DNA of 64,000 nt from positions 1-64,000 of the IMG/VR virus record IMGVR_UViG_3300014838_000017; one strand, 5' to 3'. Position 1 is the first letter of the stretch. Every line of letters starts with the position of its first letter. Source of the stretch: a virus. Below the pieces are notes generated by a model. The model made no database searches. It saw only the letters and a list, made by a program, of their open reading frames with translations, and was not told the DNA's origin. This document shows positions 4,663-64,000 of this stretch, piece by piece. Position numbers and translations under genes: made by a program.

Positions 4663-5157
4663 TTATGCGCTTTCACCGTTGTAAGTTGCCAACCAATAAA
4701 CATACGTGGTCAATGGTTGCAAGGAATTGCTCGAAATAATAAATCCTGATGCGATAGGGGTTTCCATTGTCCATACTCGTGCATCTCCACCTATTATGCT
4801 AACGGAATAGTTATTATCGGGATATGAACTTGTAAACGCTACGCTATATGTCAGTGGAGTTCCACCAAAGAAAGATGCTGATACCTTATTGGATTTAATC
4901 GCCGGGAAAAGTTTATAATAAGATGCTGTTTGAGAAAAACTACTGGTGATAGAACTAGTGGCATATAATGATTGAGTAGCAACTAACGACTGTGTAGAAA
5001 ACAAAGACTGTGTGGCATATACTACACTATAAGGTATGGCTGTTCCGGGAGCATACGATGCCGAAATAGCATATGATGCCGTTCCATATAATGAGCCACT
5101 TGCGGTCATTACGGAAATACTTGCGGTATCTATATAAAATACATTGTCTAATGCCAT
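4663..5157 (-). CDS. Virion fibre-associated protein (ASY repeats)
   Basis: TASYA repeats. The C-terminal domain (YSVSIIG.DARVWT...GF.ISSNS) is paralogous to that of 5161-5865. Confidence 0.6.
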   Translation of the reverse strand: MALDNVFYIDTASISVMTASGSLYGTASYAISASYAPGTAIPYSVVYATQSLFSTQSLVATQSLYATSSITSSFSQTASYYKLFPAIKSNKVSASFFGGTPLTYSVAFTSSYPDNNYSVSIIGGDARVWTMETPIASGFIISSNSLQPLTTYVYWLATYNGESA

Positions 5158-61683: not shown

Positions 61684-62526
61684 ATGGAACTAAATCAAGG
61701 TGAAGTAAACAACCTCAAGAAGTTTGGCACTGCATTTCAAGCCAAATGCCTAGCAGCAATGCTTTCCGACCGTGCATTTTTGGAACGTGTCATTGACATC
61801 GTATCTCCCGATTTCTTCGAAACTGATGCCCATAAATGGGTTGTCAAGTTTATCGCATCGTATTTTCCGACGTATCATGACACCCCTACAATGGCTGTGT
61901 TTGCATGTGAAATTCAAAAGATTCCCGATGCTGTATTGAATATGGCAGTGAAGGAACAAGTAAAAATTTGTTACCTAGAAGTATCTACCGCAAAAGACCT
62001 AACTTACGTGAAGGAACAGTTTTTGTCATTCTGCCGCAACCAGAAGTTGAAAAATGCTATTTGGGCCTCGGAAGCACTTTTGAAGCAAGGTAACTACGAA
62101 GGTATTTGGAATGCCATTAACGAGGCATCCAAAGCAGGAATGGAACGTGATCTAGGTCATGAGTATCTCGCTGATATGGACAAGCGTATGTCCGCAATGG
62201 CCCGTGAGACAGTGAAGACCAACTGGCCGATTATTGATACCCATCTTGATGGCGGGCTTGGAAAAGGTGAACTTGGGTTTGTTGTTGCGCCAGCGGGCGC
62301 AGGTAAGTGCGTTGGGCCAAATACCGAAATTGAAATCAAGTATATGGATACCGGAATTCCGGTCGTTGGTAACTCAGGTAAGGAATATATCATTTGGATT
62401 AAACCATTTGAGAAATTTGATTTCGATGGAAAAATATTATATGGGTGGCAAATCGATAATATTTTCTTTGAACTTGAGAAAATGAAGTCGCAACTACTGG
62501 GACGGGAAAATATACAGAAAAAGTGA
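61684..62526 (+). CDS. dnaB: DnaB/gp41-like replicative helicase N-terminal fragment fused to N-intein
   Basis: ID..LDGGLGKGELG.VVAPAGAGK is followed by CVGPNTEIEI (intein block A) at 62308, then a stop at 62524-62526. Confidence 0.85.
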   Translation: MELNQGEVNNLKKFGTAFQAKCLAAMLSDRAFLERVIDIVSPDFFETDAHKWVVKFIASYFPTYHDTPTMAVFACEIQKIPDAVLNMAVKEQVKICYLEVSTAKDLTYVKEQFLSFCRNQKLKNAIWASEALLKQGNYEGIWNAINEASKAGMERDLGHEYLADMDKRMSAMARETVKTNWPIIDTHLDGGLGKGELGFVVAPAGAGKCVGPNTEIEIKYMDTGIPVVGNSGKEYIIWIKPFEKFDFDGKILYGWQIDNIFFELEKMKSQLLGRENIQKK

Positions 62527-62618
62527 AGTTTTTGTGTCTGTGTTAATATGTATAAGAGATCATGAAAGTAAAAATGTTATCCGAATTGCTTCATGGGAAT
62601 TTTCTCTGATAAATTGCG

Positions 62619-63569
62619 ATGGTTATCAATCATATACAAATAAGGATGAATAAGTTAAAATGTCAAATTTGTGGATTTGAGGGAATGAATTTAGTAACTC
62701 ACTTGAAGTTTAAGCATTTTCAGTCGGTGGACGATTATCGAAAGAAATATGGACAGCGCCAAGTTTATCTTCACTCCGACGAATTGCGGAATAAAATTTC
62801 AAATACACTTAAAAAATTAAATGAAAATATAGAATTTAGGCGAGAAAATTCCAATCGTCAGAAAAATGGCGCTTCGTGTTTAACAATTAAGTATTGGACG
62901 AATAGGGGGGTCTCCGAAGAAAATGCTCGAATAAAAATATCCGAATTACAAAAAAATAATTGTCGGAAACATTTGGTCAATGGTGATTTACAGGAATGTT
63001 CACATTTTTCTACCAAATATTGGATAAAGCGAGGATGCACTGAACAGGAAGCGATTAAAAATGTGTATAACATACAGAGTGAACTATCATCCAAATCTTC
63101 TAAATTTCAGGGACATATTCATACCGATGAAGAAAAAGAAAGAATTTCATCGTCTCTCAAAAAGATGATTGATGTTGTGGGAAGGGGAAAATGGGCACGC
63201 CATTTTGGGGAGTTTAATGGTCGTAGTAAAGCTGAAATCGAGTTTTACAATTACATAAAGGAAAACATAGATTTGTCAGTTCAAGCAAATGTTTCCGTCG
63301 GAAATTATATTGTAGATGTTATTAAAACTCGGAAAATAATTGAATTTTATGGTGATTTTTGGCACGCCAATCCATTGATTTTTTCTAAATGTAATAAGTT
63401 GTATCCACATGGCCGACGTGTTATGATGGCGGAAGATATATGGAAAAAGGATAATGCTCGTATATCTTGGCTGAGAAGTGAGGGGTATGAAGTTTTAATT
63501 GTATGGGAAACGGAGTGGAAAAAGCAAAAAGAAGTGTGTATTGAAAAGATTAGGAAATATCTGTTATGA
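62619..63569 (+). mobile_element. Free-standing Vsr-like PD-(D/E)xK homing endonuclease between the intein halves
   Basis: CQICG..H...H, KYW..RG.SEE.A repeats, SKAE..F, VD....KIIEFYGDFWHANP, D..R...L...GYEVLIVWE.EW. Confidence 0.8.
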
Positions 63570-64000
63570 TTTATAAGCGTGTTACGACCGAGAAAATAAA
63601 GATGGTAGAATTGTTTTCCCGCCTTGGCGTGGAGAACAAAGAAAATGCCAAGATTTCCGTCCCATTTCCGTTGGGAGTGAATACTCCATACGGATACAAA
63701 AATATTATCACGGTATTTAGGACCGAAAAGCAGCGGGCAGTGACGACCTATTTCAAAAATAATAAGACATTGAAAACTTCCAATGATCATTTATTGAAAG
63801 TAAATGGCGATTGGAAGAAAGTCCGGGACATTGTAAAATCCGATATTATCGAAACTGAAGTGGGAACGACCTCTATAAAGATGCAACATATTGGGAAGTT
63901 GGAAATTTTATATGATATTTCGGTGGAAGATGTACATTGTTATTATTCGAACGGTATAGTATCTCATAATTCGTGGGTATTAGCTCATCTTGGGGCCGAG
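63566..64000 (+). CDS. dnaB: C-intein (135 aa) fused to the helicase C-terminal fragment (partial, runs off the window end; absent from the ORF track)
   Basis: ATGA overlap with the HEG. Reads MIYKRVTTEKIKMVELF...VNTPYGY...LKTSNDHLL (block B)...LYDISVEDVHCYYSNGIVSHN|SWVLAHLGAE. Confidence 0.85.
   Translation, partial: MIYKRVTTEKIKMVELFSRLGVENKENAKISVPFPLGVNTPYGYKNIITVFRTEKQRAVTTYFKNNKTLKTSNDHLLKVNGDWKKVRDIVKSDIIETEVGTTSIKMQHIGKLEILYDISVEDVHCYYSNGIVSHNSWVLAHLGAE

Follow-up and report, generated by a model that had tools for sequence, protein, structure and literature searches.

The subject of this report is a fractured replicative helicase gene that begins near the end of a 64,000-base window (the whole stretch of DNA that was analysed), comprising the first 64,000 bases of the 82,348-base IMG/VR record IMGVR_UViG_3300014838_000017. 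Judged from its sequence, this uncultured peat-soil phage carries a DnaB/gp41-like helicase as three separate genes, interrupted by two split inteins, the first of which breaks the Walker A loop within the window while the second lies just past the window end. We consider it probable that the only replicative helicase detectable in the record is encoded in these three genes and that its translated pieces are joined in two orthogonal protein trans-splicing reactions, with a conserved module on the N-terminal fragment of the first intein acting as a docking handle. The helicase region of the record, which extends past the window end, is referred to below as locus L002. The stretch is found almost exclusively in metagenomes from peat, permafrost and some freshwater sites (20 rows from 17 studies), and at least half of the sampled words are present in five of these 20 rows.

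The first break comprises three open reading frames (ORFs) on the plus strand, in three different frames: 61684-62526, 62619-63569 and one starting at ATG 63566. The ends of the first and the start of the third are as given by the original prediction, which was made from the letters of the window and described a helicase ORF passing through GAGK/C (a slash marks a splice junction) into intein residues and stopping at 62526, a separate endonuclease ORF, and a further ORF in a third frame. The first ORF encodes 280 amino acids, consisting of helicase sequence as far as ..APAGAGK, the intein segment CVGPNTEIEIKY, 60 residues more and a TGA stop. The third encodes TSNDH (block B) and ..VEDVHCYYSNGIVSHN (blocks F and G) followed by SWVLAHLG, and runs on to position 64705 of the record. 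The lengths proposed for the N-terminal and C-terminal intein fragments, 72 amino acids for the former (IntN1) and 135 for the latter (IntC1), also stand. Between them the two fragments have the residues that characterise a class 1 intein, namely Cys1, S-N-D-H and ..S-H-N/S, and these are kept in every helicase-type row of the family alignment A2. Comparison with intein profiles, which had been proposed as a check, gave a match of the Pfam family Intein_splicing to IntC1 (E 9.3e-8, profile positions 9-94 of 155, beginning at IntC1 residue 10) and to the full second piece (42.4 bits against a cut-off of 35.8).

The exteins flanking these inteins can be rejoined on paper with the help of P0007, an intein-less homologue. 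At 208, 150 and 114 amino acids they sum to 472, which is the length of P0007, and P0007 maps to the record in exactly these three stretches, which lie colinear and are 80-88% identical to it, and has no match outside them. Across the first junction it reads ...GSGKSWVLAHLGAE..., continuous through the Walker A motif, which bears out the proposal that joining the exteins restores this motif. Both inteins are precisely delimited because P0007 is continuous over both junctions (..GSGK-SWVLAHLG.. and ..SQSNR-SVHESD..). A profile of the alignment that includes these helicases matches a solved structure described as a 'DnaB-like replicative helicase' (8dtp, E 1.3e-21), and no further helicase copy was found in the record either by the mapping of P0007 or by a search with the DnaB_C family.

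The second split intein, in the same helicase and just beyond the window end, was missed by the original prediction, whose view ended with the window, and is of the canonical kind. The middle extein of 150 amino acids ends ..SASQSNR and is followed by IntN2, which has 94 amino acids, carries block B (..TCSANH) and matches the solved gp41-1 intein (PDB 6qaz) in a phmmer comparison at E 3.1e-12. Its partner, IntC2, has 47 amino acids and ends THN/S, such that fragment lengths, the placement of block B and the relation to gp41-1 all mark this as a gp41-1-type intein. Since a canonical split intein cuts the same helicase a second time, the enzyme would be made from three genes.

In terms of the Hint fold, alignment and structure prediction place the cut in the first intein at the site known as S1, after beta2 and before alpha1, which would leave nearly all of the Hint domain in IntC1. 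Block A, in which C209, G211, N213, T214, I216, I218 and Y220 are at least 90% conserved in an alignment of N-pieces (A1), aligns in A2 to the N-terminus of unsplit relatives in the terminase large subunit (TerL) and of split relatives in an SbcC-like protein. The 129-amino-acid terminase relative matches CVGPNTEIEI.., skips about 70 columns and resumes at the start of IntC1 (..EKIKMVELFSRLG, helix alpha1), and the alpha1 segment (..KIKMVELFSRLG) belongs to IntC1 in the same alignment. At the junction the split helicase inteins run colinear with the unsplit ones, the end of IntN abutting the start of IntC with a two-residue difference in length. An AlphaFold2 model of a natural unsplit intein with five-residue flanks, which is 52-64% identical to the halves in the window, was built from a 33-row alignment (predicted local distance difference test score, pLDDT, 92.6; predicted template modelling score 0.87). 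Its elements follow in the order of a long strand (12-25), strands 31-36, 41-44 and 47-50, a helix (51-67), a loop (68-75), a strand (76-86), a helix (87-93) and then the usual beta-rich Hint core. The cut of the split forms maps to the loop at 68-75, between the helix of the appended module and the strand leading into alpha1. Together with the Pfam match from IntC1 residue 10, the alignment and this model support the earlier assertion that the break falls right after block A and that blocks B, F and G lie in IntC.

A Foldseek search with the unsplit-homologue model returned 60 PDB matches at E<=0.001 and, among the matches listed, every one is an intein, a BIL domain or a HINT domain. VidaL, an intein, ranks first (E 2.7e-7, 14% identity), with a template modelling score of 0.81 on the target and 0.56 on the query, as would be expected if about 60 residues of the query are extra. 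VidaL comes from a T4-like helicase. Among solved inteins the A2 family profile matches CatC (E 6.3e-10), VidaL (E 2.8e-8) and gp41-1 (E 2.5e-7), and the match to VidaL begins at chain residue 25, past the insert. The ratio of nonsynonymous to synonymous substitution rates (dN/dS) for IntC1 is 0.04-0.11.

The 60 residues that follow block A in IntN1 had been regarded as an unexplained tail on a 'very-short-IntN' that might be trimmed to 12-20 amino acids. Alignment and modelling point instead to a mini-domain peculiar to this family, which in split and unsplit members alike is lodged between beta2 and the strand leading into alpha1. The whole IntN including this tail is present in 29 of 29 aligned N-piece homologues, where G232 and G254 are invariant and W238, P241, W255, Q256, N259 and E263 are at least 90% conserved. 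Over IntN residues 13-60 conservation equals or exceeds that of the extein, and the last 12 residues or so vary in sequence and length. For the module, dN/dS is 0.034-0.144 over the five pairs with unsaturated dS. The module lies in-frame inside the unsplit inteins of three contiguous helicases and, in an AlphaFold2 model of IntN alone (82 amino acids, 40-row alignment), it is predicted with pLDDT 90-95 over four strands and a helix; block A, a strand in the unsplit-homologue model, is a coil of lower confidence when IntN is modelled alone. Because the tail is conserved, under selection, present in unsplit forms and predicted to fold autonomously, IntN1 is not functionally 'very short', and the segment once set aside as a remainder belongs to the intein family. 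The fragment has 66-74 amino acids in eight of the nine distinct split relatives and 45-74 over all nine.

The module has no evident relatives outside this setting. The 72-residue IntN matched no Pfam family, the module matched no PDB fold in Foldseek (best E 1.5) and had no usable match in the ESM Atlas, and its profile gave 12 matches among 1.84 billion representative proteins. Ten of the 12 are helicase N-pieces, fragments or the unsplit helicase P0122; the others are P0132, which is repetitive and spurious, and P0129, a short chimeric ORF. In P0129 (91 amino acids) an unrelated N-terminus is joined to the C-terminal half of the IntN module.

A search with the first piece returned 1,028 proteins at E<=0.001 among 1,458 candidates, and among the 120 best, which were listed, 54 cover at least 93% of the N-extein plus IntN (counted from the table); 29 of these make up alignment A1. 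Unsplit forms were sought with IntN alone against proteins longer than 490 amino acids, and in three contiguous helicases, P0121 (687 amino acids), P0122 and P0123 (669 each), an unsplit intein of about 204 residues occupies the same insertion site; the tail is in-frame, and both an endonuclease and a second intein are absent. A scan of IMG/VR yielded 53 loci, of which 17 carry intein 1 (10 distinct sequences): 14 are split with an endonuclease gene, one is split without it (L017) and two, identical to each other, are unsplit. In L017 the first endonuclease gene is gone and the second is a 79-residue remnant, and both split inteins and all catalytic residues are retained, which argues that the split state is functional. 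Helicases without intein 1 account for 19 loci. One such locus, L028 (L028:4377-5708), has a match to piece 2 that continues through IntN2 until the contig ends; it apparently carries only intein 2, and the two inteins therefore occur independently. Both inteins are split, giving the three-gene layout, in the window, L010 and L017.

Seven further loci (L042-L048) have a relative 35-42% identical to IntC1 in the Walker A loop of an SMC/SbcC-like ATPase, with an IntN of 29 amino acids; the host protein has weak Pfam matches only, to SMC_N and SbcC_Walker_B. This ATPase is itself fractured (for example L042:3255-7154), reading ..NFGGK/C ... SHN/T with a Vsr-like endonuclease gene between the halves, and in L044 the halves are about 25-45 nucleotides apart without an endonuclease. 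By eye the terminal helix of the module resembles a 17-residue extension of the 29-residue SbcC-type IntN, the segments being too short for a claim. Three loci (L039-L041) have the 129-residue unsplit relative in the terminase large subunit; at L039:4902-5288 this mini-intein follows ..GIRGKS, lacks the insert of about 70 residues and was used as the minimal-fold reference. The match of the remaining seven loci (L049-L055) is limited to the last 30 or so residues of IntC1. Among 50,697 GenBank phage records, tblastn with IntC1 and its flank found one record, which matched in the extein part only, and therefore no isolate with this intein was found there.

A tree was built from 18 IntC-equivalent sequences, excluding the duplicates L006, L009, L012, L015, L016 and L019 and also L040, L041, L043, L044, L046 and L047. 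The unsplit forms fall inside a nine-row clade with split forms, and the helicase branches that diverge earlier hold split forms throughout; support is no higher than 84/93, the branches to the outgroups are very long and the tree is arbitrarily rooted. Re-fusion of a split intein into an unsplit one is therefore a lead suggested by the sequences, for which tree support and rooting are too weak to make a claim.

Each break in the helicase holds a free-standing homing endonuclease gene (HEG1 and HEG2) with a C-terminal domain that, on its sequence motifs, is Vsr-like. The Pfam matches of HEG1 are DUF559 (22.4 bits, cut-off 20.6), MTES_1575 (E 5.2e-5) and NUMOD3 (E 0.003), its conserved part starting near Met10 (62646), and it aligns weakly with Escherichia coli Vsr (E 0.15) over the D..FWH..D..VWE (FWH, IVWE) motifs. 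HEG2 matches DUF559 at 20.8 bits against the same cut-off of 20.6. A homologous endonuclease ORF occupies the same position in 14 of the 17 related loci, in line with the proposal of a split intein in the Walker A loop with a free-standing endonuclease between its halves. The order of N-part plus IntN, endonuclease ORF and IntC plus C-part on one strand, which defines a fractured gene, occurs twice in this helicase.

The pieces also overlap. The IntC1 ORF overlaps the stop of HEG1 (ATGA, 63566-63569), the IntC2 ORF overlaps HEG2 by 14 nucleotides (record 65937-65950), and relatives overlap similarly, as in L004, where the HEG frame extends to 5008 and IntC starts at 4998; these overlaps suggest that translation of the helicase pieces is coupled to that of the endonuclease genes. 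A regulatory RNA or promoter in the spacer between IntN1 and HEG1 was considered and dropped, since 62520-62660 folds no better than shuffled sequence (z +1.14). Sigma-70-like sites are not enriched (28 against 22.8 +/- 5.2), and one terminator-like site was found against 2.4 expected. In comparisons among L004, L005 and L008 the exteins have dN of 0.07-0.21 with dS from 1.5 to saturated, and IntN and IntC have dN of 0.007-0.043 with dS of 0.2-0.7; for L004 against L008 the extein dN is about 0.19 with dS saturated, and that of the intein parts is 0.03-0.04 with dS of 0.2-0.7. Exteins far more diverged than the intein parts they enclose are a signature of recent lateral movement of the cassette. 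A deletion derivative is seen in P0021 (324 amino acids), an N-piece in which IntN runs in-frame into the last 45 or so residues of a Vsr-like endonuclease.

The mechanism that we favour builds on this anatomy, on sequence conservation and purifying selection, on the predicted folds, on the signs of mobility and on the agreement of independent assemblies. Pieces 1 and 2 would associate through IntN1 and IntC1 and splice to restore GAGKS, the Walker A motif (GK/S), with IntN1 supplying beta1-beta2 and the beta/alpha module of about 50 residues, and IntC1 supplying alpha1 and blocks B, F and G. Pieces 2 and 3 would associate through the gp41-1-like pair (94 and 47 amino acids) and restore ..SQSNR-S.., at motif H4. 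The two reactions should be unable to cross, because IntC2, with 47 amino acids, is without most of the fold that IntN1 needs and IntC1 already contains what IntN2 would contribute. The module may act as a pre-folded handle on IntN1, offering a larger interface with the first strand of IntC1 and thereby allowing efficient capture of the 12 residues of block A, which would otherwise be disordered. The endonuclease genes in each break would spread the cassette of intein and endonuclease between helicase alleles.

Several points weigh against this proposal. Both protein trans-splicing and the role of the module are things that we infer, the former from intact catalytic residues, purifying selection and the survival of the split state in L017 after loss of its endonuclease genes. 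The handle role draws on the split position, the autonomous fold and the strand order, the model that bears on it being of an unsplit homologue and not of the IntN and IntC pair. IntN of L017 has 45 amino acids and is without the module helix, that of L018 is a divergent 66 amino acids, and the SbcC-like relatives with 29 amino acids indicate that an IntN free of the module is possible. With a completeness of about 22% (CheckV estimate) for the record, a second helicase elsewhere in the genome is possible. The RNA evidence amounts to two short contigs from one metatranscriptome and could reflect DNA carry-over.

The alternative that most deserves attention is that the module has some role other than docking, whether in targeting the endonuclease to DNA, in gating splicing as in a conditional intein, or in a replisome function of the unspliced N-piece. 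The module is conserved and under selection, but the data show no contacts with IntC; it persists in unsplit inteins, where docking is unnecessary, and relatives presumably splice with an IntN of 29-45 amino acids. Its retention in endonuclease-free loci and in unsplit forms, however, argues against a role confined to homing, no resemblance to a DNA-binding fold or to any other fold in the PDB could be detected, and the module sits exactly at the split point, so that on balance we regard a role of this other kind as rather unlikely. That the 60-residue tail might be meaningless read-through into the endonuclease cassette, leaving a true IntN of about 12 amino acids, is suggested by its final dozen or so variable residues and is very improbable given the nearly invariant G, W, P, G-W-Q, N and E positions over residues 13-60, a dN/dS of 0.03-0.14, a confidently predicted fold and the same segment in-frame in unsplit inteins.

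It might also be that selfish elements have disrupted the helicase gene, leaving it non-functional and in decay, and that its function is supplied by the host or by another phage gene, which would fit a record so incomplete and a splicing reaction deduced from sequence. We think it improbable, as all catalytic intein residues are intact, purifying selection is strong on the exteins and on both intein halves, the same split layout is found in nine distinct relatives and the identity of the exteins to intein-less P0007 extends over all three pieces. Least credible of all is that the frames are rejoined at the RNA level by an intron, or that the stop and frame change are artefacts of sequencing or assembly, outcomes against which the original prediction had asked to be checked. 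Logan contigs from three other peat metagenome studies (X2, X3 and X5) match L002 at >=99% identity with no indels, joints or other letters. One X3 contig spans L002 511-1201, and with it the N-extein, IntN1, the stop and the start of the endonuclease; the overlap of HEG1 and IntC1 is bridged by X3 and X5 contigs and that of HEG2 and IntC2 by an X5 contig, with a gap in cover at about 3380-3700 of L002. Two short contigs from a metatranscriptome library (X12) are colinear with the locus, in HEG1 and across the HEG1/IntC1 junction. An Rfam scan of L002 1-5200 found no intron family, the sole match being a small RNA at E 0.71, which is chance level. Indel-free independent contigs and the lack of an intron family lead us to set assembly error and RNA splicing aside, and intein motifs at the protein level account exactly for the junctions.

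Much of this arrangement has precedents. Fractured genes with Vsr-like endonucleases, natural splits at S1 and S2 and the insertion hot spots in the P-loop and motif H4 are already known. Natural atypical splits occur at two places, S1 after beta2 (VidaL, PolB16) and S2 after alpha1 (AceL-TerL, GOS-TerL), with IntN lengths of 15-37 amino acids (PMC13014065), and with such examples published the first intein is of a less rare and less new kind than the original prediction implied. VidaL and PolB16 OarG (PDB 6vgv, 8cpn; PMC13014065, PMC10189870) share the split point after beta2, with blocks B, F and G in IntC, and VidaL, like intein 1, is cysteine-dependent (Cys1); their IntN, however, has 16 and 15 amino acids, against 72 here, where a conserved module of about 50 residues and a variable end stand at the split point and the fragment lies outside the short range of S1-type inteins. 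The S2 terminase inteins AceL-TerL, GOS-TerL and the consensus Cat (PDB 6dsl; PMC11766414, PMC13014065) include the closest solved sequence relative, CatC, but are cut after alpha1 with an IntN of 25-37 amino acids, whereas here alpha1 is in IntC1, and host gene and insertion site differ; the unsplit 129-residue relative of intein 1 also sits in a terminase large subunit (L039).

The fractured genes gp41-1 to gp41-9, NrdJ-1 and others are accompanied by free-standing GIY-YIG or Vsr-like endonuclease genes (Dassa et al. 2009, PMC2677866), and it was for fractured genes that this study defined the Vsr-like family. They share with the present locus the order of N-part plus IntN, spacer, endonuclease and IntC plus C-part on one strand, and the same Vsr-like family. 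Those genes are described as being in two parts, with canonical late splits modelled on DnaE and spacers of 27-51 nucleotides, whereas the helicase described here is fractured twice, its first break is atypical, its spacer is 92 nucleotides long and no conserved hairpin was found in it. Unsplit inteins of DnaB have been described in the P-loop (point b) and in motif H4 (points a/c), and at times a single DnaB has both positions filled (PMC4760082); the same hot spots are occupied here, but those inteins are contiguous and in cellular DnaB, while both of ours are split, each with its own endonuclease. In the openly licensed PMC and bioRxiv literature we found no description of an atypical split intein with a conserved folded module on its IntN (66-74 amino acids), nor of a helicase that occurs in nature as three genes and relies on one atypical together with one canonical split intein to join their products.

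It is possible, and we put it forward tentatively, that the first intein represents a third natural solution to a split near the N-terminus, in which an IntN with a pre-folded docking domain, in place of a bare peptide of 15-37 amino acids, captures IntC and positions the 12-residue catalytic strand. Combined with the canonical gp41-1-type split it would form a natural orthogonal system of two inteins and three polypeptides, and the unsplit members of the family may be re-fused descendants of split ancestors.

The features of the locus are collected in Table 1. Directly 3' of the helicase is an ORF of 873 amino acids (record 66524-69145, L002:5025-7646) that by eye resembles a ribonucleotide reductase with a C-terminal CxxC..CxxC tail.

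Table 1. Features of the fractured helicase locus; positions are those of the window, or of the record where marked.
Feature	Position	Strand	Basis
N-extein, DnaB/gp41-like helicase, 208 amino acids, ends in first half of Walker A (..APAGAGK)	61684..62307	+	ORF; 88% identical to P0007 residues 1-209
IntN1 block A, Cys1, CVGPNTEIEIKY, predicted Hint strands beta1-beta2	62308..62343	+	Conservation; alignment with TerL and SbcC-like relatives
IntN1 appended module, 60 amino acids (predicted four short strands and helix, variable end of about 12 amino acids), and TGA stop	62344..62526	+	Conservation; dN/dS; fold model
Non-coding spacer, IntN1 stop to endonuclease ORF, 92 nucleotides	62527..62618		
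HEG1, free-standing homing endonuclease gene, 316 amino acids, Vsr-like C-terminal nuclease domain	62619..63569	+	Pfam; layout in relatives
IntC1, 135 amino acids: helix alpha1, block B (S-N-D-H), blocks F/G ending H-N, then Ser+1	63566..63970	+	Pfam; profile matches
Middle extein, start SWVLAHLGAE..	63971..64000, in record to 64420	+	P0007 colinearity
IntN2, 94 amino acids	record 64421-64705, past window end	+	gp41-1 match
HEG2, second endonuclease ORF	record 64739-65950	+	DUF559
IntC2, 47 amino acids, ends THN/S	record 65937-66077	+	
C-extein, 114 amino acids	record to 66422 (last ORF 65937-66422)	+	P0007 colinearity

Split inteins with a small N-fragment are valued by protein chemists and natural ones are few. 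The family described here offers a comparison series of forms that are split with an endonuclease, split without one and unsplit, with an IntN of 29, 45 or 66-74 amino acids, which could reveal by what means a minimal catalytic strand reaches a near-complete Hint domain and whether a folded module raises affinity or speed. The coexistence of an atypical and a canonical split intein in one essential protein is the design principle of engineered three-segment ligation and, if the docking-domain reading is true, the phage would provide a natural, structurally orthogonal two-intein system for the one-pot assembly of three polypeptides. For phage biology, the locus bears on the degree to which traffic of homing endonucleases can break up an essential replication gene and yet leave it working.

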